A stretch of 64,000 bases of DNA. It comes from a virus. The translations under genes were made by a program, and so were the position numbers. The notes under the pieces are model-generated. The model was not told where the DNA came from. It did not search any database and saw only the letters and a program-made list of their open reading frames with translations. Of the stretch, positions 4,272-48,130 are shown one piece after another. The number at the start of each line of letters is the position of its first letter. Position 1 is the first letter of the stretch. Location: the IMG/VR virus record IMGVR_UViG_3300033153_009650, positions 1 through 64,000 of that record; one strand, 5' to 3'.

Positions 4272-4721
4272 ATGGCAGATAATATTGTTTGGAAAAGAGT
4301 TCGACATTTTCAGAGCATAGAATTTAACGATCCAAATCATCCAGGTTCAGGAATTTGGATAAATGGAATTCTATTAATGAGACTTGATGTTCTTCGCCAT
4401 GATACAAATTGGCCTATCATTCCACATGCAGCAGTTGGAGGTTGTGTGGATATGGAAGGTACTCACGAGCATTCTACTAATAGTTATCATTTAAAAAGCA
4501 ATGGATGTAAAGCTTGTGATTTTCATTTCATTACTGATGCTTCTCCTCGTCGTCAATACTATGAAGTTTCACGAATGGGATTTGGGGGTTTAGGGGCTTA
4601 TTATGATTGGAATTGGAAAGGAAGGAAACTGCTTATTGGCTTCCATGTAGATGTAAGGCCATCTGATAAAACCCAAAGATGGAAACGGATAGATGGCCAG
4701 TATATATATTTACTTAATTAA
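4272..4721 (+). CDS. Endolysin, peptidase M15 family (Zn peptidase)
   Basis: SYH...ACDF...FHVDVR Zn-binding pattern of M15 peptidases. Start reassigned to ATG 4272 after GAGGT. Confidence 0.75.
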   Translation: MADNIVWKRVRHFQSIEFNDPNHPGSGIWINGILLMRLDVLRHDTNWPIIPHAAVGGCVDMEGTHEHSTNSYHLKSNGCKACDFHFITDASPRRQYYEVSRMGFGGLGAYYDWNWKGRKLLIGFHVDVRPSDKTQRWKRIDGQYIYLLN

Positions 4722-4742
4722 TTTTTAAACAGGAGAAAGAAA

Positions 4743-4871
4743 ATGGCAGGAGGTACAGGGCCACTAAGAAATAAGGTTGTAGAAAAACTACAAAAAGAAG
4801 TTAAGGAACTTAAAGAGAAGCTCGTTGAGCTTGAAAGGAGGTTAGATGAAGCCCTAAAGAAACCGGATTGA
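4743..4871 (+). CDS. Small coiled-coil protein (42 aa)
   Basis: AGGAG RBS; MAGGTGPLRNKVVEKLQKEVKELKEKLVELERRLDEALKKPD. Confidence 0.5.
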   Translation: MAGGTGPLRNKVVEKLQKEVKELKEKLVELERRLDEALKKPD

Positions 4872-7031: not shown

Positions 7032-7394
7032 TCATAGAGCATTTTTTCTTCCTATAACAGGATTATATTTATAAATTCCTTTATCGTTTTTACTATATGG
7101 TATTAGCTTTTTATCTTTGGTTTTGGTTTCAAGAAAATAGTTTCCTGCTGTATCATAGTTTGTCATTTCTGCTATGAGTATTTCTTTTATCCCACCTTTC
7201 TGCCATTGAAAGTATTCAAGTTCATTTTCGATGTCGGAGGTTTTATCTAACAATTCTTCTATCATAGGTTGTAGATCAAAGAAAGATTCATTGAAAACTT
7301 TGTTGAGAAGAAAAGTAAGGATTAAGTAAGCAAGGATAATAGCTATTGCCATTGATAATACACCTATTAATATATCTCGGAAAAAGGCTTTCAT
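7032..7394 (-). CDS. Hypothetical membrane-anchored protein
   Basis: N-terminal TM helix, RBS present. Confidence 0.5.
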   Translation of the reverse strand: MKAFFRDILIGVLSMAIAIILAYLILTFLLNKVFNESFFDLQPMIEELLDKTSDIENELEYFQWQKGGIKEILIAEMTNYDTAGNYFLETKTKDKKLIPYSKNDKGIYKYNPVIGRKNAL

Positions 7395-8544: not shown

Positions 8545-9153
8545 TCAATTTTGGTTAGTAACATAGGTTATTCCTTTCTTAATAGACGTTTCAAATACCT
8601 TGTCTGCTCCTTCAATAAGATCAGGGGAATGACTTACCATTATGAATTGTAAATTTAATTTCTCACTAAGTTCTTTTAACATAAGAGAAGCCTTAGGTTG
8701 TAAATCACGTGAAAGGAACCGAAATGGTTCGTCTAAAATCATTATGTTGCGGGTTTTAGGTTGGGATAATGACCAAAGAGCAACTCTTAAAGCAAAGGAA
8801 GCAATGTCAACAACACCTCCTCCTGTAGCTGATAAAGGATCAATTCTTTCTCCATCTTTAATGAAATAAATATCGGCTTCTGTTTTACCTCTTCTAATAA
8901 CAAATTCTAAGATCAATTCATAAGGATCATCAAATACAGCAGACAAAGCTAAGGTAACAAGCTCACTGATATGGTATTGCAGTTCTTCCTGTGTTTGTTT
9001 GGCTACTGTTTGAATAATAACCTGAGCTTTTTCAGAGTAAGAAATTTCTTCTTCTAAATGCTTAACTTCTTTCTCTGTTTTTTTAATTTGAGAATAGAGT
9101 TGTTCCTGATGACCTTTTTTTCTTTCGATAATAATTCTGAATTTTTTTAACAT
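8545..9153 (-). CDS. SbcC/Rad50-like ATPase, C-terminal half (split gene)
   Basis: Coiled coil, then signature-like LSATGGG, Walker B ILDEPF and H-loop VSH. No Walker A. Confidence 0.8.
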   Translation of the reverse strand: MLKKFRIIIERKKGHQEQLYSQIKKTEKEVKHLEEEISYSEKAQVIIQTVAKQTQEELQYHISELVTLALSAVFDDPYELILEFVIRRGKTEADIYFIKDGERIDPLSATGGGVVDIASFALRVALWSLSQPKTRNIMILDEPFRFLSRDLQPKASLMLKELSEKLNLQFIMVSHSPDLIEGADKVFETSIKKGITYVTNQN

Positions 9154-9868
9154 TTTGATCCTTTCCCTTATATAATGTTATCTAAGCGAACAAGATTTAG
9201 AATGATATGAGTAGGATAATTACATTCGGAACATCATATTAATTCCCCTTCCCCGGGCTCGGTTGGGCGGGCTCTTTTTCGCTGAATATTCATTTCTTTT
9301 TGCGCTGCTTCTTCTGGATATAAGCCTTCATTTTGATAATCTTTAATTCGGTCAAAATCAACCATATCTGGATTACCACCTGACATCCATACATCATATA
9401 AAACATCCCCCCTATAATCTTCCATAAATCCTCCTATTCTTGTTCTAAATGATCAATGTCTAATTTCTCACTTTTAAAATATATTTGAATGCCCCACCGA
9501 CATTTACTGCAATAACGATATTCAGCAGAATGGTTACCTGATAAATGACATGGAATTTCAATCTTGGTTCCACATTGGCAGCAGTCAGTGTTAATAATTA
9601 TTTCGTTTGTCAAAACTCCCTCCTTTCCTGATTTAGAGATTGAAACCTGACAGGTGGACTGCTACCACAGTGCAGCGAACACTCCATAGCCTCACGAAGT
9701 ATGGCTGTCAGATAAACTTAACTTTTTCATAATTTCTCCAACAAGTAAGTCTACTTCTGTACTAACAGCATACACAGCCCGAAGTTCATTCCTTAATTCA
9801 GGCTCTTTTTGTAGTCTTACTTTTGCTTCCTCTTGAATTGCATCAACTATATATTGGTAATTTGTCAT

Positions 9869-18911: not shown

Positions 18912-19103
18912 TTAAAATCCTTTCTTTAACAGCCTATCTAACTTGATCTGTTCAACCACCCATCGTCCGCCAAACTTTCGCCCGATGCCTCTTTTCCTAC
19001 ACCAATCTCGAATTGTTTGGCCGGAGATAGGGCCATACCCTAATGATTGGATATAGGATATGGCCGTGTTTATCGTTAGAAGTTTTTCTGGTTGATCGTT
19101 CAT
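18912..19103 (-). CDS. Excisionase/MerR-type winged HTH protein
   Basis: LLTINTA...ISGQTIRDWCRK..IGRKFGGRWVV. Confidence 0.7.
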   Translation of the reverse strand: MNDQPEKLLTINTAISYIQSLGYGPISGQTIRDWCRKRGIGRKFGGRWVVEQIKLDRLLKKGF

Positions 19104-20317
19104 TATTTACGTCTCTGTCTCCGACGAGAGGTCGGTTTTTCTTCTGTTTTCTTTTCCTCTTTCTTTGTAGTCCTTCGACGTCGAGGAGTAGGCTCTGGTT
19201 TTTCTTCCTGTTTTTCTTCTGTCTCCTGTCCTGTTGTTTGAGCTTCTGCATCATGTCCTTCCTGGGCATCAGCACAGGCATTGAATATTTCTTCAGGGCA
19301 GTCTTGACACGCCTCTCTTTCATTGCAATCTATACCAAAGATTCCTCCATCAGGGCAGCTTCCTGCTGGAGTTTCTTCTGGAGTCTCTTCTGGAATTTCT
19401 TCTGGAGTTTCTTCTGGAGTTTCTTCTGGAGTCTCTTCTTTCTTTGGTTTCCGCTCAGTTTTTCTACTACGAGATCTCCTGGCTGGTGGTTTTTCTTCAT
19501 CTGGAGGATTATCATCTTTTTCTGATTGAGTTTCCTCTTCTTCATCCAGTCCAAGGAATACTCTATTCACTTCATCATAAGTTGGAATAATAAGCAATTT
19601 ATCCAAAGACAAAGTTTCATCCAGAATACTTTCCTCATAGGCATCACGATCCTTGAATTCAATTGACTGAGCCTCGATAAATTTGCTCTCACCAAGGCTC
19701 TTTTCTTTGCCTTTGAATTCGATAGACTTTCCTCGTTCCAAATCACTGAAGGTAATATATTCTTCTCCGTCAAGAGCATCTTCGAGAAAGTTCTTCTCAA
19801 ACAAATGATAGCTTGCATCTGCCCAAAGTTGAAGGTCTTTATCTGGCTCACTATAATCATAAATATTATAATAACAACGCCATGATGGAGTTAATGCCCG
19901 AATGACATCCTCACTTTGTTCGGATTTAGGTTTATCATATTCTACTCTCAATTCCTCGCATATTGGACATTTCTTCCCAAATGCCAATCGTCGACAGAGA
20001 AATTGCCTATTGTCCACTCCTATTCGACTGTGAACAGGAACTTCTAATTTATAATCCTCAAGCCCTGGCTCTAATCCTGTTGGACGGCCGCTTTTAGTCC
20101 GAAGATCAGGATACCAATCTTGAGTGATTTCAAAAGGGAGAATGTCAATAAAATTTTTCTCCTGTCCGGATTTGGGTTTAAAAAGGTTTAAGGATTCAAT
20201 CCCTGAAATATCAAGGACCGTAGAACCTCCGAGACCTGTCTTGTTTCTTTCATTTCCCGATTGTTGAGTTCGGCGCCTTAACGCCTCTCTTCGTTCCTTT
20301 GCTGATTTTCTTGCCAT
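19103..20317 (-). CDS. Single-stranded DNA-binding protein (T4 gp32-like) with acidic low-complexity tail
   Basis: H...C...CPICE Zn ligands, YYNIYD, long acidic tail with PEET repeats; in the recombination cluster. Confidence 0.65.
   Translation of the reverse strand: MARKSAKERREALRRRTQQSGNERNKTGLGGSTVLDISGIESLNLFKPKSGQEKNFIDILPFEITQDWYPDLRTKSGRPTGLEPGLEDYKLEVPVHSRIGVDNRQFLCRRLAFGKKCPICEELRVEYDKPKSEQSEDVIRALTPSWRCYYNIYDYSEPDKDLQLWADASYHLFEKNFLEDALDGEEYITFSDLERGKSIEFKGKEKSLGESKFIEAQSIEFKDRDAYEESILDETLSLDKLLIIPTYDEVNRVFLGLDEEEETQSEKDDNPPDEEKPPARRSRSRKTERKPKKEETPEETPEETPEEIPEETPEETPAGSCPDGGIFGIDCNEREACQDCPEEIFNACADAQEGHDAEAQTTGQETEEKQEEKPEPTPRRRRTTKKEEKKTEEKPTSRRRQRRK
19365..19438. repeat. 12-bp coding tandem repeat (PEET) in the SSB tail
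   Basis: CTGGAGTTTCTT-like units encoding ETPE repeats. Confidence 0.8.
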
Positions 20318-20431
20318 GCTTTTGTTCCTCCTGTCTTTTAGTGGTTAATATCGCCTTTGTAATTATCTTTGTCAAAAGATAAACTCCGATAATTAACAAG
20401 GGAATTCCTCCGAATATAATTAAAAACTCTT

Positions 20432-20950
20432 TCATTGTTTTCTCGTTCTTCTCCTTCGATTAATTCCTTCTCTCTGTTTTTCTGAAGCCTTATCCCTTGC
20501 CCTATCCACCATTCGTTTTCCTGACGGAAGATCCCGAGGCTCCTTTGGCCCTGCGAAATAACTTGCCATATAGAGCGTGACAAGATTTTCCAAAGCTTTC
20601 TTTCTGTGATCAAAAGATCTGACTGCCGCTTGAAGCAGATTAACTTCAAGATTTGCATCTGTAAGAAGATCTTGAACCTCTGTGAATCGAGCCTCCATAA
20701 GAATTGCTCCAGCAACCACAGTTTCTGTTATCTTTGAAATTCCATAGTCATCAGGTTTTTTTCTGATATCCCGATCTACCTGCGCCCTTGTTACATCAAG
20801 TTTTTCTTTGATCTTATCTCGCGACTTTTGTGCTTGAGCTAATGCCTCAGAATATTTCATATAGAGATTGGGATGTAATAACCATTCATCATCAAGTGCA
20901 TGAGGATCAATTGCCAGATCGTTTTCATAGTTAAAATTTTCTTTATCCAT
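20432..20950 (-). CDS. UvsY-like recombination mediator candidate (coiled coil)
   Basis: Helical 172-aa protein (DLAIDPHALDDEW...KKALENLVTL) next to SSB and RecA; assigned from context. Confidence 0.45.
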   Translation of the reverse strand: MDKENFNYENDLAIDPHALDDEWLLHPNLYMKYSEALAQAQKSRDKIKEKLDVTRAQVDRDIRKKPDDYGISKITETVVAGAILMEARFTEVQDLLTDANLEVNLLQAAVRSFDHRKKALENLVTLYMASYFAGPKEPRDLPSGKRMVDRARDKASEKQREGINRRRRTRKQ

Positions 20951-20960
20951 TTTTATTCAC

Positions 20961-21015
20961 CTCCTTTCTAAGTATTATATATTATTTTTAAGCTTTTTTA
21001 ATATTTTATTTTTTT
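20961..21015 (-). promoter_or_regulatory. Conserved phage promoter box (copy 1) with RBS
   Basis: Minus strand AAAATAAAATATTAAAAAAGCTTAAAAATAATATATAATACTTAGAAAGGAG, with TATAAT -10. Near-identical copies at 21185, 36648, 42690, 46398. Confidence 0.75.
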
Positions 21016-21029
21016 GCGCTCATAATCCA

Positions 21030-21165
21030 TGGTTTTCTCAAAAAGCCTGGCTCGCTCTCTTTCCTTGGTTTTCTCAACATTAATGGCTCGCTCGTTTATT
21101 GTGGTTTTCTCAGAACAGATGGCTCGCTCTTCATTAGTGGTTTTCTCAACATTAATGGCTCGCTC
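21030..21165 (-). ncRNA. TIGR-like dual-repeat guide-RNA array, 4 units of 36 bp
   Basis: Minus strand alternation of GAGCGAGCCA-N7-TGAGAAAACCA-N8 with exact 36-nt period, plus a partial terminal repeat GAGCGC. Own promoter box immediately upstream. Confidence 0.7.
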
Positions 21166-21184
21166 TTTTTTCACCTACTTTTAT

Positions 21185-21228
21185 AGTATTATATAATATT
21201 TTCAGGCTTTTTTAATATTTTATTTTTT
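21185..21228 (-). promoter_or_regulatory. Conserved phage promoter box (copy 2), upstream of the 36-bp array
   Basis: AAAATAAAATATTAAAAAAGCCTGAAAATATTATATAATACT; unlike the other copies it lacks the AAAGGAG RBS. Confidence 0.7.
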
Positions 21229-21324
21229 GTCCTTCCGACTTCTTTTCAATTCAAGGAATTTAATAACCCCCACATTTCCTTTAGTTTTTCTCCTGTACTT
21301 TTTATTTCCATTTTTTATCCTTTC

Positions 21325-22248
21325 CTAAAAAGGAACATTTCGTTTTTCGTCATCAAGACATTCCCAACACGCCAAAGTTAATAAAGCTTTTCCTCCATAA
21401 AAGAAATTTTCTTTGAAACAATCGATTACCAATGCTCCTAATCCATTACCATTTAGCAGTACAGAATTCATATAGCCTAAAACCGCCTGCCTAACTTTTT
21501 CTGGCTCTATTTTAATTCCTTTCAAAATTTCTGCAATCACAGGCCAATCATTTCCTTTAATCAATGCCCTGCATAAATCAATAACCTGCTTATCCCCAAT
21601 GGCGGCTATTTTAACAACTTCTTCCTGTTCATCTGGAGGAAGATCTATGATCTGATCCAAAATAATCAATGCGCTTCGAGGACATCCATCAACAGATTCA
21701 ATTATTAAATCTTTGGCTGACTTATCAATTTCTAAATCTTCCTCTTTCAAGACCCAGTCAAGCAATTCATCAATCTGATCTTCAGTTAGTTTATCAACAT
21801 CAAAAACGGAACATCTATTTCTAATTGTCTTTAAAAGTTTTCCAGGATCGGTTGTACAAAGAATAAAATAAACATGATCAGGAGTATCCTCCAAGGGTTT
21901 GAGCAAGGCAGTCTGAAAATCTTTGGTTCCCATATGGACTTCGTCCATGAGAATTACTCTCACCGGTCCTGCTATTGGCATATAAGAAATTGTTTGAATG
22001 ATTTCTCGGGCGGTATCGATACCTCTGCTATTAGCGGCATTGATCTCAATAAAATCTTGATCATCGCATTTTAATTCTTCCTTCATTATTCTTGCTAAGG
22101 TTGTTTTTCCACATCCGCTTGGGCCTTGAAAGAGAAATGTATGAGGGCAATCTTCTCTTCCTAATACTGATCTCAATTTTTTTACAGTTTCTTCGTTTCC
22201 AATTATTTCTCCGAAATTTCTGGGCCGATAATCTATATGTAATGGCAT
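21325..22248 (-). CDS. dnaX: Clamp loader AAA+ subunit (DnaX gamma/tau-like)
   Basis: YRPRNFGEIIG, GPSGCGKTT, EINAA, DEVH, LLKPLED, TIRNRC. Confidence 0.85.
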   Translation of the reverse strand: MPLHIDYRPRNFGEIIGNEETVKKLRSVLGREDCPHTFLFQGPSGCGKTTLARIMKEELKCDDQDFIEINAANSRGIDTAREIIQTISYMPIAGPVRVILMDEVHMGTKDFQTALLKPLEDTPDHVYFILCTTDPGKLLKTIRNRCSVFDVDKLTEDQIDELLDWVLKEEDLEIDKSAKDLIIESVDGCPRSALIILDQIIDLPPDEQEEVVKIAAIGDKQVIDLCRALIKGNDWPVIAEILKGIKIEPEKVRQAVLGYMNSVLLNGNGLGALVIDCFKENFFYGGKALLTLACWECLDDEKRNVPF

Positions 22249-22266
22249 TTATTTTCTCCTTTCATA

Positions 22267-22512
22267 TCATAAAGATTTCTTAAATTTAGTACAGAGCGGT
22301 CGTCCTTTCTTAAATATCCATTCTTTAGGGTAATTAGGCTCATCGACATCAAAAACCGTTGTGTTTGCAATTATTTCACACAGAGGTTCATCAGGATAAT
22401 TGTCATGTATACATTGATCACAAAAGTACGCCATGAATATTTCGCCCTCTGTTCCATTGCTTGGTCTGTACGGTGAACCATCTTTCCGTTTCCAAGTTGC
22501 ATCTCTTCTCAT
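22267..22512 (-). CDS. Conserved phage hypothetical protein
   Basis: YRPSNGTEG...FCDQC...CEII...YPKEW pattern, RBS. Confidence 0.55.
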   Translation of the reverse strand: MRRDATWKRKDGSPYRPSNGTEGEIFMAYFCDQCIHDNYPDEPLCEIIANTTVFDVDEPNYPKEWIFKKGRPLCTKFKKSL

Positions 22513-28842: not shown

Positions 28843-29841
28843 TCATTTAGAAGCCAAAGAAATAACATGTTGAAAATTATCGCCTTCAAAAAGAAGAGAC
28901 ATTTCTCCAATGGTAACTTCTTTGAGTCTATTCAAAATTTCTCTAAGAAATACCGGATGTATGAAAAGTTTAATTTCTTCTCCTGTGTATCTAATACGAT
29001 GTTCTTCTTCAATAAAACCAAGAGGACCTTGCCCTTTACATATTAAAGTTGATTTTTTAAGAGTCAAGGAAATGATCAAATCCTGTTCAAATTCTGTTTT
29101 GGCCAGAATTTCTGCCCTATCAATAGATTCGGCAAGACTGACAGGGAATTTTACTTTCTCTCCTTCCACTTTCAAAAAAGATTCTATATCAGGATATTCA
29201 ACATCCATGATTCGAGTACTGAAGATTGTTTTTTCTTCATTAATAAAATGAAGCCATTCCTTTTGTAGAGAATATTTTATTGGAGAATAGTTGATAAGAT
29301 GAGTGGCTGCATTCCCCGGGAGAAAAAATTCTTTTTTAATGGACTGATTCATAATTCTTTTTGTAATCCGAAATTTATCAGTAGATAAAATTTTGTTTTT
29401 AATAATTCTAAGATTAGTAAGTTCCGGTCTGGTCATATCTTTACTCACGGAAAACAAACAGAACTTAACTGCATTGGAAAAATCATCTGATAAAGGAAGC
29501 CATGTTTGAATATCATCGAAGAAAAGAGGAAGCTTGTGTTCTTGTGTAATATTGATATGGGCTTTGCTTCTCTTTCCTTTAATAATAAATTTATCTTCTT
29601 CCATTTGAATGTCTAATTCTTCGTCAGGTAATTTACTGATTAAAGCAAAAAATTCATTGGCTTTGACTGCCCCTTGTAATCCTGTCTTCATCATTTGTAG
29701 AATAGAAATTTGATCATTGTAAGTTTGGATTGTCGTTTCATTGAAAACAAAATGAGTCGTGAATTCAATGATTTCTTTATTTGCCAATCCAGGTTTAACT
29801 TTAACCAAAGCTTCTACTAACTCTTGTCTATTAATTTTCAT
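28843..29841 (-). CDS. dnaN: DNA polymerase sliding clamp (beta subunit-like)
   Basis: MKINRQEL..., FSVSKDMTRPELT, STDKFRI, YPD, FxHPxFL; 332 aa. Confidence 0.75.
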   Translation of the reverse strand: MKINRQELVEALVKVKPGLANKEIIEFTTHFVFNETTIQTYNDQISILQMMKTGLQGAVKANEFFALISKLPDEELDIQMEEDKFIIKGKRSKAHINITQEHKLPLFFDDIQTWLPLSDDFSNAVKFCLFSVSKDMTRPELTNLRIIKNKILSTDKFRITKRIMNQSIKKEFFLPGNAATHLINYSPIKYSLQKEWLHFINEEKTIFSTRIMDVEYPDIESFLKVEGEKVKFPVSLAESIDRAEILAKTEFEQDLIISLTLKKSTLICKGQGPLGFIEEEHRIRYTGEEIKLFIHPVFLREILNRLKEVTIGEMSLLFEGDNFQHVISLASK

Positions 29842-42689: not shown

Positions 42690-42742
42690 CTCCTTTCTAA
42701 GTATTATATATTATTTTTAGACTTTTTTAATATTTTATTTTT
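42690..42742 (-). promoter_or_regulatory. Conserved phage promoter box (copy 4) with RBS
   Basis: AAAATAAAATATTAAAAAAGTCTAAAAATAATATATAATACTTAGAAAGGAG. Confidence 0.75.
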
Positions 42743-47614: not shown

Positions 47615-48130
47615 TCATATTTTTTCAATATCATTTCTATATCTGCAAAATTCGTTGTAGTATGGCCGTAATACTCTCAGCGCTTTCTGCGCTTTTTTAG
47701 ATACATTTTTTGTGTCTAATCGGCCTATATGAGCTATTAATTGCCAAACAAATCGAGTATTGACTTTCATTCCAAAACTACCACACCACAAGGGCAAACA
47801 GCTAAAATCAAGGTCGGCTCCCCGAAGGTCAGCTCCCTGAAGGTGAGCTCCCTGAAGTTGGGCTCCCCGAAGGTCAGCTCCCTGAAGGTGAGCTCTCCAA
47901 AGGTCGGATCCCCGAAGGTCAGCTCTCCGAAGGTCGGCTTCCTGAAGGTCGGTTCCCTGAAGTTGGGTTCTCCAAAGGTCGGATCCCCGAAGGTCAGCTC
48001 TCCGAAGGTCGGCTTCCTGAAGGTCGGCTCTCCGAAGGTCGGCGTCCTGAAGTTGGGCTCCCTGAAGGTCGGCTTCAAAAGTTGTTTCAATTTCCAACAT
48101 AACCTGTCCAAAACGATTTTTAATTTTCAT
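47615..48130 (-). CDS. Pentapeptide repeat protein
   Basis: About 17 A(D/Q/H)Lxx repeats, then LPLWCGS. Confidence 0.92.
   Translation of the reverse strand: MKIKNRFGQVMLEIETTFEADLQGAQLQDADLRRADLQEADLRRADLRGSDLWRTQLQGTDLQEADLRRADLRGSDLWRAHLQGADLRGAQLQGAHLQGADLRGADLDFSCLPLWCGSFGMKVNTRFVWQLIAHIGRLDTKNVSKKAQKALRVLRPYYNEFCRYRNDIEKI

Follow-up and report, generated by a model that had tools for sequence, protein, structure and literature searches.

Between a clamp-loader gene and a UvsY-like gene, the phage record IMGVR_UViG_3300033153_009650 carries a short tract in which two different repeats alternate with brief variable segments. A sequence-only reading took this tract for a TIGR guide-RNA array and saw no tas gene in view, which raises the question of whether it is a guide array at all and, if so, what such an array could do in a genome with no protein to use it. 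The window analyzed here is the 64,000-nucleotide stretch at positions 1 to 64,000 of that record, and the whole phage genome comprises 89,129 bp. We find that the window holds a genuine dual-repeat TIGR array, whose repeats are of the SpTasH/TasA type and which encodes four complete tigRNA units of 36 nt, and we file the locus as a TIGR array rather than as a complete TIGR-Tas system.

Anatomy of the array and its flanks

On the minus strand each unit is exactly 36 nt long (starts at 21165, 21129, 21093, and 21057) and consists of an edge repeat GAGCGAGCCA, an 8-nt spacer A, a loop repeat GAGAAAACCA, and an 8-nt spacer B. The first edge repeat is full length, while the last is truncated at its 3' end, reading GAGCG at 21021-21017 and then C. 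The repeats are perfect in 8 of 8 instances; each of the two 10-mers has four exact copies, all on the minus strand of the array, and the 89,129-bp genome contains no others. Tandem Repeats Finder, which reported a period of 36 (4.0 copies, score 123) and a period of 72 (score 206) across 21026-21170, agrees with the minus-strand reading of two alternating repeats, both ending in CCA, at an exact 36-nt period. The 9+9+9+9 parse proposed at the outset is valid alongside a 10+8+10+8 parse, since members of the repeat family differ in the first base of each repeat (about 1.1-1.2 bits). The eight spacers comprise seven distinct sequences; as had been noticed, spacer A TTAATGTT is common to units 1 and 3, and their spacer B sequences are unlike one another.

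Table 1. Coordinates of the features at the array locus, numbered from the first base of the window.
Feature	Position	Strand	Details
UvsY-like recombination mediator gene, 172 aa	20432..20950	-	Downstream flank; 98% identical in sister contig
Promoter box copy 2 (P2)	20974..21014	-	-35 at 20996-21001; -10 at 20974-20979; then AAAGGAGGTG and ATG of the UvsY-like gene
58-aa ORF, GTG start	20998..21174	-	Overlaps array; judged not a gene
Dual-repeat TIGR array	21017..21165	-	Four 36-nt units plus terminal 3'-truncated edge repeat
Promoter box copy 1 (P1)	21188..21228	-	-35 TTAAAA 21215-21210; -10 TATAAT 21193-21188
21-codon remnant of 67-aa ORF	21246..21311	-	ORF intact in sister contig
Clamp-loader/DnaX-like AAA+ gene, 307 aa	21325..22248	-	Upstream flank; Pfam DNA_pol3_delta2 E=4.1e-22; 99% identical in sister contig

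The array sits between two copies of a promoter box, P1 and P2 (Table 1), both of which contain TTAAAA-16-TATAAT. A 21-nt word of this box is present at 20992-21012, 21206-21226 (0 mismatches), and 42721-42741 (1 mismatch), where shuffled sequences give an expectation of 0.07. Behind the copies at 21001 and 42730 stands AGAAAGGAG, whereas the copy heading the array instead reads AAAAGTAGGTG, a degraded RBS-like word, so that the array's copy is, as had been observed, the only one of the three without an intact RBS word. P1, a predicted promoter-like site that aligns at 92% with the box heading the tasA cassette of a sister contig described below, would begin a transcript ~15-20 nt ahead of the first edge repeat, and we propose that the array would be transcribed from this duplicated phage promoter. 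No terminator-like site was detected in 20300-22400, including the interval between the array and P2, and an array transcript would therefore run on into the UvsY-like gene. Assignment of that gene rests on matches to Pfam UvsY (E=4.8e-4, under the curated cut-off) and phrog_231 (E=2.6e-4), with which synteny agrees. Comparison of orf265 with the PDB gave nothing above noise.

The array overlaps a 58-aa ORF with a 12-residue ERA..EKT.. repeat, and the sequence-only reading recognized that a real coding frame here would undermine a guide-RNA interpretation, since the repeats might then encode a small repetitive protein. The frame does stay open across the whole array from its GTG start, and array 2 of the sister contig is open in the same frame. 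However, among 67 family arrays this frame is open in only 8 and no sense frame is open in 45, chance alone leaves some sense frame open in 116 of 213 four-unit windows, and array 3 of the sister contig is open in a different frame. Family arrays vary block-wise, with ~2.0 bits at all spacer positions against 0-0.6 at most repeat positions, and show neither a codon-wise pattern nor 3-nt periodicity. No RBS precedes the ORF, and its GTG lies within the degraded RBS word. A repeat-encoded protein is thus scarcely credible: the ORF is spurious and the array is noncoding, and the failure of this frame as a gene favors reading the array as RNA.

Other classes of element were also considered. An Rfam search of 20800-21400 at E<=10 gave no match on the array and two chance-level matches (E=2.1 and 9.6) far under their gathering scores, and a box C/D sRNA or another Rfam family was rejected for want of a covariance-model match on the array. 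Riboswitch, attenuator, and terminator readings were dropped because folding yielded no stable structure for the array RNA (z=+0.47), and a CRISPR array was rejected because the tract has two different 10-nt repeats and 8-nt spacers rather than a single repeat of ~25-36 nt with similar-sized spacers.

TIGR identity and the cassette of a sister phage

Where Faure et al. (2025, PMC12045711) set out array structure, dual-repeat TIGR arrays are described as having two repeats of 8-12 nt, spacers of ~8-9 nt (up to 12), a 36-nt unit, CCA as box C, an A-rich loop, and a 3'-truncated last edge; box D motifs may diverge but covary between edge and loop, and the array-end features are termed typical rather than obligatory. 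The window's array has two distinct alternating repeats of this size (GAGCGAGCCA and GAGAAAACCA) at a period of 36, with spacers of 8+8 nt (9+9 when the variable first repeat base is counted); SpTIGR likewise has 16 variable nt. CCA closes both repeats, the loop is A-rich (GAG-AAAA-CCA), and edge and loop both begin with (G/A)AG rather than with the UG of TasR arrays, a box D variant that the validated SpTIGR array (AAG...) also has. The truncated last edge GAGCG recurs in other family arrays, and over 569 units the repeats are conserved and the spacers hypervariable (0-0.6 bits at most repeat positions, 1.9-2.0 at spacer positions). The SpTIGR control array, AAGCGAGCCA-N8-AAGACAACCA-N8, is a near match to the window's repeats.

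A search by array pattern alone found the same repeat pair in 52 viral contigs. A Tas profile matched 38 of the 52 array loci, with the Tas gene adjoining the array, together with both controls (the sister contig, L001, and L002 at E=8e-61). The association with Nop-domain genes in relatives that had been looked to as a check is therefore present both across these 38 loci and in the sister contig, where a tas gene lies at the same locus, and with the near match to the SpTasH array it upholds the TIGR architecture originally assigned to the tract. Across the wider lineage, just 3 of 32 clamp-loader loci (2 phages) contain a TIGR element, which indicates that the element is accessory, and a metagenome scan with the UvsY-like protein recovered 3 distant loci (38% identity) carrying neither array nor Tas.

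No close DNA relatives were found among GenBank phages. The sister contig, IMGVR_UViG_3300033148_006664, has 97.9% nucleotide identity to the window over 7,998 nt, with flanking genes at 97-99% amino acid identity and the same promoter boxes, and between these boxes it carries a cassette of array 1, tasA (324 aa), array 2, a ParB-like ORF, and array 3. The cassette has edge and loop repeats identical to those of the window. The earlier suggestion that related phages be examined here for tas is answered directly, as tasA lies between the same junctions: window 21253-21166 aligns with L001 7134-7221 and window 21021-20900 with L001 9585-9706, the window having 144 bp where the sister has 2,363 bp. 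These clean junctions fit the proposal of a promoter-bracketed cassette prone to recombination. A second indel lies beside the cassette, with 136 bp (L001 6998-7133) missing from the window at the remnant of the 67-aa ORF. The three sister arrays contain 11 canonical units as parsed, against only four in the window, and none of the window's eight spacers recurs in them, so that the window's array is not a simple internal deletion of the present sister cassette. The summed minimum Hamming distance from the window's spacers to those of the sister is 20. Spacers drawn at random from the family give 26.6, with 0.7% of these controls reaching so low a value, and composition-matched permutations give 25.0-25.3, with 1.4-4% doing so; the result is no more than suggestive of kinship between the two sets.

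With phmmer, the 324-aa ORF of the sister matched TasH chains (E=2e-14) and chain 9mty_A (E=2.8e-8), a TIGR-TasR by its Foldseek hit title. An AF2 model of the protein (pLDDT 80.9) places a globular domain after helices at 2-45 and 64-92, and its top 10 Foldseek matches are all TasH or TasR (E=4.6e-8 to 1.7e-6), with IS110-type recombinases next. The protein is of the TasA type, with a coiled coil and a Nop domain and neither HNH nor RuvC. The cutting of pre-tigRNA in dual-repeat systems is ascribed, in the account given for SpTasH, to a Y289/H296 dyad on a C-terminal loop (NAR 2026, PMC13421893); Y289 aligns with Y312 of the sister protein, a residue nearly invariant in alignment A1, and the residue opposite H296 is K319, two positions ahead of a His (H321), the family consensus being LGHxH. 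This protein is the cognate TasA for the window's repeats, and the unknown effector that had been entertained as a partner is not needed.

Absence of tas and origin of the array-only form

That the 64 kb encode no Nop-domain protein, as first reported, is borne out and now extends to the whole 89,129-bp genome by profile, tblastn, and alignment searches. Six-frame searches for Tas or Nop with PF01798, the sister Tas query, tblastn, a jackhmmer profile, alignment A1, and phrog_4285 all came back empty, the jackhmmer Tas profile reaching at best E=0.77 under --max, against E=8e-61 or better for the controls. The Nop-domain tas gene that stands beside the array in the sister is thus lacking from the window's genome.

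Since Tas itself cuts dual-repeat precursors into guides, according to the processing described for these systems (Faure et al., PMC12045711; Xu et al., 10.64898/2026.09.09.750476; PMC13421893), the window's array could not make or use guides alone. On balance, and with slightly better than even confidence, we regard it as a relic or array-only allele of the TIGR-TasA cassette, non-autonomous, whose tas was lost or never gained. The window would then represent the array-only allele of a mobile cassette, with the array either the remainder after loss of tasA and the ParB-like gene or standing where they never arrived, so that the event may have been a loss or a partial gain. Such cassette change would come about by recombination between copies of the promoter box and of the arrays at this intergenic hotspot, and the array would be inert unless a TasA recognizing the same repeats were supplied in trans. 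Perfect repeats and an intact P1 could instead mean maintenance, a point of little weight at ~2% divergence.

Another counterpoint is that the record is linear and without terminal repeats, and that its CheckV completeness of 100% is an estimate about which the tool itself warns, so that an effector at a missing end, or an extremely divergent one, is conceivable. The array would in that case be the remote array of a complete TIGR-Tas system, a layout known in the family, where arrays lie at least 25 kb (G005) and ~59 kb (G007) from tas. We consider this unlikely given the empty six-frame searches and the CheckV rating, and because repeats identical to those of the sister's TasA imply a cognate protein near enough to detect. 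An assembly artefact, in which a cassette-bearing phage was collapsed across its repeats, is more improbable still: the promoter boxes do share an exact 21-mer and the arrays are repetitive, but no identical stretch inside an array exceeds 10 nt, and a jump from one promoter box to the other would delete the array rather than keep it. With seven distinct spacers absent from the sister cassette, the array cannot be a collapse of that sequence.

The most probable alternative is that the array is a maintained orphan acting in trans, its guides loaded onto a TasA that comes from a kin phage in the same infected cell, from a prophage, or from the host. The guides would either steer that TasA to targets of benefit to this phage or serve as a decoy for it; we hold this to be possible, though the less probable account. 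Virus-borne mini-CRISPR arrays and RNA anti-CRISPRs offer analogies. Beyond the intact promoter and perfect repeats, the array's complete spacer turnover relative to a sister only 2% diverged is consistent with such a role, as is the ability of family arrays to work far from tas in G005 and G007. One sample series (3300033148, 3300033150, and 3300033153) yielded contigs both with and without Tas whose repeats are identical, although co-infection with a TasA carrier is assumed. Array-only states recur independently. A distant syntenic relative (contigs L025/L049, ~47% amino acid identity) has a promoter box, a mini-array, and a promoter box at the same site, together with a second mini-array, and no Tas within 27.8-31.3 kb, but these contigs are only 30-33% complete and tas may lie elsewhere. 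Intact arrays are also found in two complete Tas-less genomes, one of 80 kb with terminal repeats and 100% completeness (G003) and one of 63 kb with terminal repeats (G008). Such independent recurrence fits a selected role better than accident, and we tentatively suggest that, for Tas-less phages, promoter-driven TIGR mini-arrays may be weapons or decoys that act in trans: processed and loaded by a foreign TasA during co-infection or in a TasA-making host or prophage, the guides would re-aim or titrate that protein to the advantage of the array's carrier.

Target searches do not lend weight to a trans-acting role. In line with the earlier suggestion of a search for adjacent 9-mer pairs in phage sequence, we compared the window's four guides with their own genome and 14.9 kb of the sister (8+8 nt with <=2 mismatches; 9+9 nt with <=3) and obtained 0-3 matches per geometry, equal to letter-permuted controls. 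A family-wide search of 548 guides against 586,693 bases covered four geometries, two of them opposite-strand and two same-strand. It gave 0-1 exact matches in each, where re-paired controls averaged 0.1-0.4, and 9, 19, 2, and 7 matches at <=1 mismatch against control means of 11-12 (maximum 17-19), which is at chance.

By our own estimate, chance alone would produce many occurrences of any 16-nt word in large sequence collections. A false-positive problem in target searching is raised likewise by Xu et al. (10.64898/2026.09.09.750476).

Whichever account holds, the window and its sister form a natural near-isogenic pair at ~2% divergence, one with tasA, a ParB-like gene, and three arrays and the other with a lone four-guide array of different spacers. 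Together with the complete Tas-less genomes, this pair makes testable the action of guides in trans, the pace of spacer turnover, and the movement of TIGR cassettes, in this instance within a replication module, at an intergenic hotspot bracketed by duplicated promoter boxes. If the array is only a relic, it still records the loss of TIGR-Tas systems; if its guides do act in trans, it would parasitize the RNA-guided effector of another element by means of guide RNA alone, and no natural role would have been proposed before for Tas-less TIGR arrays.

Comparison with known systems

The first description of TIGR-Tas dates from as late as 2025, and the discussions of Faure et al. (PMC12045711) and Xu et al. 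(10.64898/2026.09.09.750476) present the natural function, targets, and spacer origin of these systems as open. Published catalogues were built outward from tas genes, so that arrays in tas-less genomes could not be found in this way. In the literature searched, we found no report of such arrays, and the word "orphan" does not occur in Faure et al., Xu et al., or Guan et al., although the supplements (Faure et al., table S1 and fig. S4) and TIGRSafari may already list the sister contig or similar loci.

The closest characterized system is SpTIGR-TasH of Salicola phage CGphi29 (NC_020844; PMC12045711, PMC13421893), which shares the 10+8+10+8=36 nt unit, an edge repeat identical save for the variable first base, a loop repeat differing at 2 of 10 positions, CCA at the end of both repeats, and a truncated final edge. 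There, tasH immediately precedes the array, which is closed by a terminator hairpin, whereas the window's phage has no tas in its genome, and its array comprises just four units, lacks a terminator, and has a dedicated promoter that is duplicated.

Nuclease-less TasA systems are presented as RNA-guided transcriptional repressors in the preprint of Xu et al. (2026, 10.64898/2026.09.09.750476), and the sister's cognate protein is likewise of the TasA type, with a coiled coil and Nop domain but no HNH or RuvC. The TasA proteins treated there use stem-loop guides and are encoded beside their arrays, unlike the dual-repeat guides of the window, whose protein is absent from the genome. By analogy, if the window's guides were ever loaded, the expected output would be DNA binding or repression, not cleavage. 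Orphan CRISPR arrays and virus-borne mini-CRISPR arrays likewise place a guide array on a genome without the effector gene, with the effector possibly supplied in trans. They belong to another RNA class and serve another effector family; the window's array has 10-nt repeats and 8-nt spacers, and the two spacers of a TIGR unit, unlike those of orphan CRISPR arrays, pair with opposite strands.

Architecture of the array and its promoter boxes

Each of the four units of the array, all exactly 36 nt long, consists of the edge repeat GAGCGAGCCA, 8 variable nt, the loop repeat GAGAAAACCA and a further 8 variable nt, and direct re-reading of the minus strand agrees in every detail with the sequence-only reading of this stretch. 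Tandem Repeats Finder recovers periods of 36 (4.0 copies, score 123) and 72 (score 206), and the exact 10-mers GAGCGAGCCA and GAGAAAACCA each occur four times on the array strand and are absent from the rest of the 89,129-bp genome. A 21-nt promoter-box word (0.07 occurrences expected from shuffles) flanks the array on both sides, with TTAAAA-16-TATAAT in both of these copies, and the genome contains just three boxes of this family. The claim that the box upstream of the array lacks the AAAGGAG RBS also holds: AGAAAGGAG comes after the copies at 21001 and 42730, and the array's own copy has the degraded word AAAAGTAGGTG instead.

A 58-aa ORF, whose GTG start falls within this degraded RBS word, was considered as a protein and rejected: among 67 family arrays with four or more units, its frame is open in just 8 (duplicates L023 and L049 dropped; runs ended at any unit whose spacer was not 8 nt). 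No sense frame at all is open in 45 of the 67, and by chance some sense frame is open in 116 of 213 four-unit windows. Family variation is block-wise without 3-nt periodicity, and arrays 2 and 3 of a sister phage are open in differing frames. The synonymous variation that the sequence-only reading had set against an RNA is not what these arrays display.

Coordinates of features in the window, the sister contig and other viral contigs
Feature	Record	Positions	Strand	Remarks
Dual-repeat array	window	21017-21165	minus	four units, then GAGCG
Promoter-box word heading the array (P1)	window	21206-21226
Promoter-box word before the UvsY-like gene (P2)	window	20992-21012
Third promoter-box word	window	42721-42741
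Third promoter-box copy, ~55 nt	window	42700-42741	minus	with AAAGGAG RBS; upstream of small ORF
Upstream junction	window / sister	21253-21166 / 7134-7221		92%; ends at first edge repeat
Downstream junction	window / sister	21021-20900 / 9585-9706		96%; starts at last truncated edge repeat
265-aa ORF	sister (L001)	8605-9402		between arrays 2 and 3
404-aa gene	window	19103-20317
12-nt tandem repeat in 404-aa gene	window	19366-19439		6.2 copies; encodes PEET-like repeats
15-nt tandem repeat AAGGTCGGCTCCCCG	window	47810-48074		17.7 copies, 76% matches
171-aa ORF containing the 15-nt repeat	window	47615-48130	minus
Tas match with 2 in-frame TGA codons	G005:C1 (L055), terminally redundant 54-kb phage	28975-29775
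57-aa C-terminal Tas fragment	L033	5653-5823		E=2e-13; adjoins 12-repeat array
Second mini-array	L025 / L049	7194-7257 / 4695-4758		~1.5 units

A sister phage with a full cassette at the same site

One close relative was recovered through its clamp-loader protein (IMGVR_UViG_3300033148_006664; 99% amino acid identity), and its contig is 97.9% identical to the window over 7,998 nt. The clamp-loader (dnaX)/UvsY-like locus of related phages had been proposed as a place to look for tas, and the sister carries tasA there, in the order promoter box, array 1, 324-aa ORF, array 2, 265-aa ORF, array 3, promoter box. Among chains of solved structure, the 324-aa protein scores E=2e-14 with TasH and E=2.8e-8 with 9mty_A, a TIGR-TasR by its entry title; it is assigned to phrog_4285 'transposase' (E=1.8e-32) and has no match in Pfam. 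Its AlphaFold2 model (pLDDT 80.9) consists of a long coiled coil and then a globular domain, and has no nuclease domain. Foldseek against the PDB places only TasH or TasR chains in the first ten ranks (E=4.6e-8 to 1.7e-6), with IS110-family bridge-RNA recombinases next. These matches and the nuclease-free fold mark the protein as TasA-type. The catalytic Tyr289 described for SpTasH (PMC13421893) aligns with Tyr312 of the sister, a residue that hardly varies in the family, and the catalytic His296 with Lys319; a His stands two residues further on. The 265-aa ORF resembles ParB only weakly (phrog_1033, E=9e-6), and its relatives adjoin Tas in three other loci (L004, L011 and L026; tblastn, E=1e-8 to 1e-12). 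An accessory gene that recurs in TIGR loci is one possible reading of it.

The junction alignments indicate that the window's 144-bp array occupies the place of 2,363 bp in the sister; the window also lacks 136 bp within a small upstream ORF. The two alleles agree in site, in repeats and in the promoters on either side. Not one of the 8 window spacers was found in the sister arrays or any other locus compared, and window-sister spacer similarity is at best weakly above composition-matched chance; the alleles therefore differ in guide content, and the window array did not arise by simple internal deletion from the sister's present cassette. The 404-aa gene is the least conserved flank (88% amino acid identity versus 97-100% in its neighbours), and its repeat number differs.

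The observation that the 64 kb encode no Nop-domain protein can be extended to the whole 89,129-bp genome. Six-frame searches with Pfam Nop PF01798 (which did match control genomes), the sister Tas, the Tas family alignment A1 and phrog_4285 returned no match, nor did tblastn for Tas, and the best hit of a jackhmmer Tas profile with filters off was E=0.77 over 875 stop-to-stop frames. The record is 100% complete by CheckV, yet linear without terminal repeats, which leaves a small risk of a missed Tas.

Arrays with and without Tas in other genomes

Searching the collections for the pattern GAGCGAGCCA-N8-GAGAAAACCA alone, we found it in 52 viral contigs and in 25 contigs assigned to prokaryotic MAGs that span many phyla. 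The MAG contigs (L058-L082), with the identical repeat pair, carry the labels Dehalococcoidia, Spirochaetes, Patescibacteria, Omnitrophota, Halobacteriota and Aenigmatarchaeota, among others; the pair is thus conserved across very distant hosts, though some of these may be misbinned phage contigs. The jackhmmer profile, started from the sister's 324-aa protein, matches both controls (the sister and, at E=8e-61, Salicola TasH), 38 of the 52 viral loci and 12 of the 25 MAG loci. Among the 14 viral loci without a match, four span the whole of a short contig (5-10 kb) and have the array in or close to a terminal position. For the remaining ten, A1 was run against the entire record: two (G005 and G007) carry Tas at least 25 kb and ~59 kb from the found array, with additional arrays adjoining the tas gene, and no Tas was found in eight. 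Among these eight are G003, an 80,025-bp record with direct terminal repeats that is 100% complete, and G008, a 63,240-bp one with terminal repeats that CheckV puts at 75%. Dual-repeat arrays are therefore also found remote from tas (G005, G007) and in Tas-less records (G003, G008). The arrays of G003, G004 and G006 appear intact, ending in truncated GAGCG as in the window; that of G008 ends in a divergent GAAGCG. The interrupted Tas match in L055 may be a pseudogene or contain recoded TGA, and the tas gene of L033 looks decayed or truncated, a possible intermediate towards an orphan array.

In an alignment-based survey of 32 loci with clamp-loader relatives (99-28% identity), a UvsY-like or 404-aa homologue lies downstream of the clamp loader in 26. 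Just three of the loci, from two phages (the sister and L025/L049), contain TIGR units, and Tas is present in the sister only. In L025/L049, Pol III alpha and the clamp loader are ~47% identical at the amino acid level and gene order is the same; the corresponding intergenic site holds a promoter box, a 2.5-unit array and a further promoter box ahead of the UvsY-like gene. These contigs (27.8 kb and 31.3 kb, only 30-33% complete) yielded no Tas. Their second array is squeezed between the stop codon of the 404-aa homologue and the start of the next gene and lacks its own promoter, so its guides would be embedded in mRNA. The distance from clamp loader to UvsY-like gene varies among the remaining relatives, and this gap behaves as an insertion hotspot, the TIGR element being accessory. 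Several relatives (L084, L085, L090, L095, L107) have gaps ~0.5-2.2 kb larger without arrays or Tas, and other cargo appears to occupy the same hotspot.

Possible function and relation to known TIGR systems

Transcription from P1 would begin shortly before the first edge repeat and, because no terminator-like site lies within 20300-22400, would read on through P2 into the UvsY-like gene. Tas itself is described as cutting the dual-repeat precursor into 36-nt guides with a Tyr/His dyad of the Nop domain (Xu et al., 10.64898/2026.09.09.750476; PMC13421893), and 36-nt RNAs are described as lost without TasR (Faure et al., PMC12045711). An array without Tas could therefore be only an unprocessed leader, and guides would form only where a TasA recognising these repeats shares the cell. 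As the TasA proteins studied so far are described as RNA-guided repressors (Xu et al.), the expected output would be repression and not cleavage.

We lean slightly towards an array-only allele that is inert alone, most likely from loss or incomplete gain of the cassette, the two genomes being compatible with either direction. Array-only states recur, complete genomes included, the window's promoter is intact and its repeats are perfect, and in one sample series Tas-bearing and Tas-less contigs with identical repeats co-occur. These observations would fit an array maintained to act in trans or as a decoy through its predicted guides; we regard this as the less likely reading. Against it, no targets were found for the window guides (own genome and 14.9 kb of the sister) or for family guides (548 guides, 586,693 bases).

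Our literature search found no report of Tas-less TIGR arrays, and published catalogues are described as built from tas loci (Xu et al.). What sets the locus apart is its setting: the array is promoter-driven, the phage genome around it is apparently complete and Tas-less, and a sister phage has the full cassette as an allele. The array itself belongs to the already known dual-repeat TIGR kind, for which Faure et al. 2025 (PMC12045711) describe 36-nt tigRNAs, spacers of ~9 nt (16 variable nt in SpTIGR) and two alternating repeats of 8-12 nt. In that description both repeats finish with CCA (box C) and share a covarying motif at the 5' end (box D), the loop repeat is A-rich, and the final edge repeat is truncated at its 3' end. 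The window array RNA has no stable fold (z=+0.47), in keeping with what is known of dual-repeat arrays, and matches no Rfam family. A consensus drawn from 569 family units reads nAGCGAGCCA-N8-nAGAAAnCCA-N8; in both repeats the opening base is variable (about 1.1-1.2 bits). The guide-array architecture proposed from sequence is upheld by the Tas linkage of the pattern and by its near-match to the validated array of Salicola phage CGphi29, our positive control (accession confirmed by the methods of PMC13421893), which reads AAGCGAGCCA-N8-AAGACAACCA-N8: the window edge repeat equals that of SpTIGR save for the first base, and the loop repeat differs at two positions.
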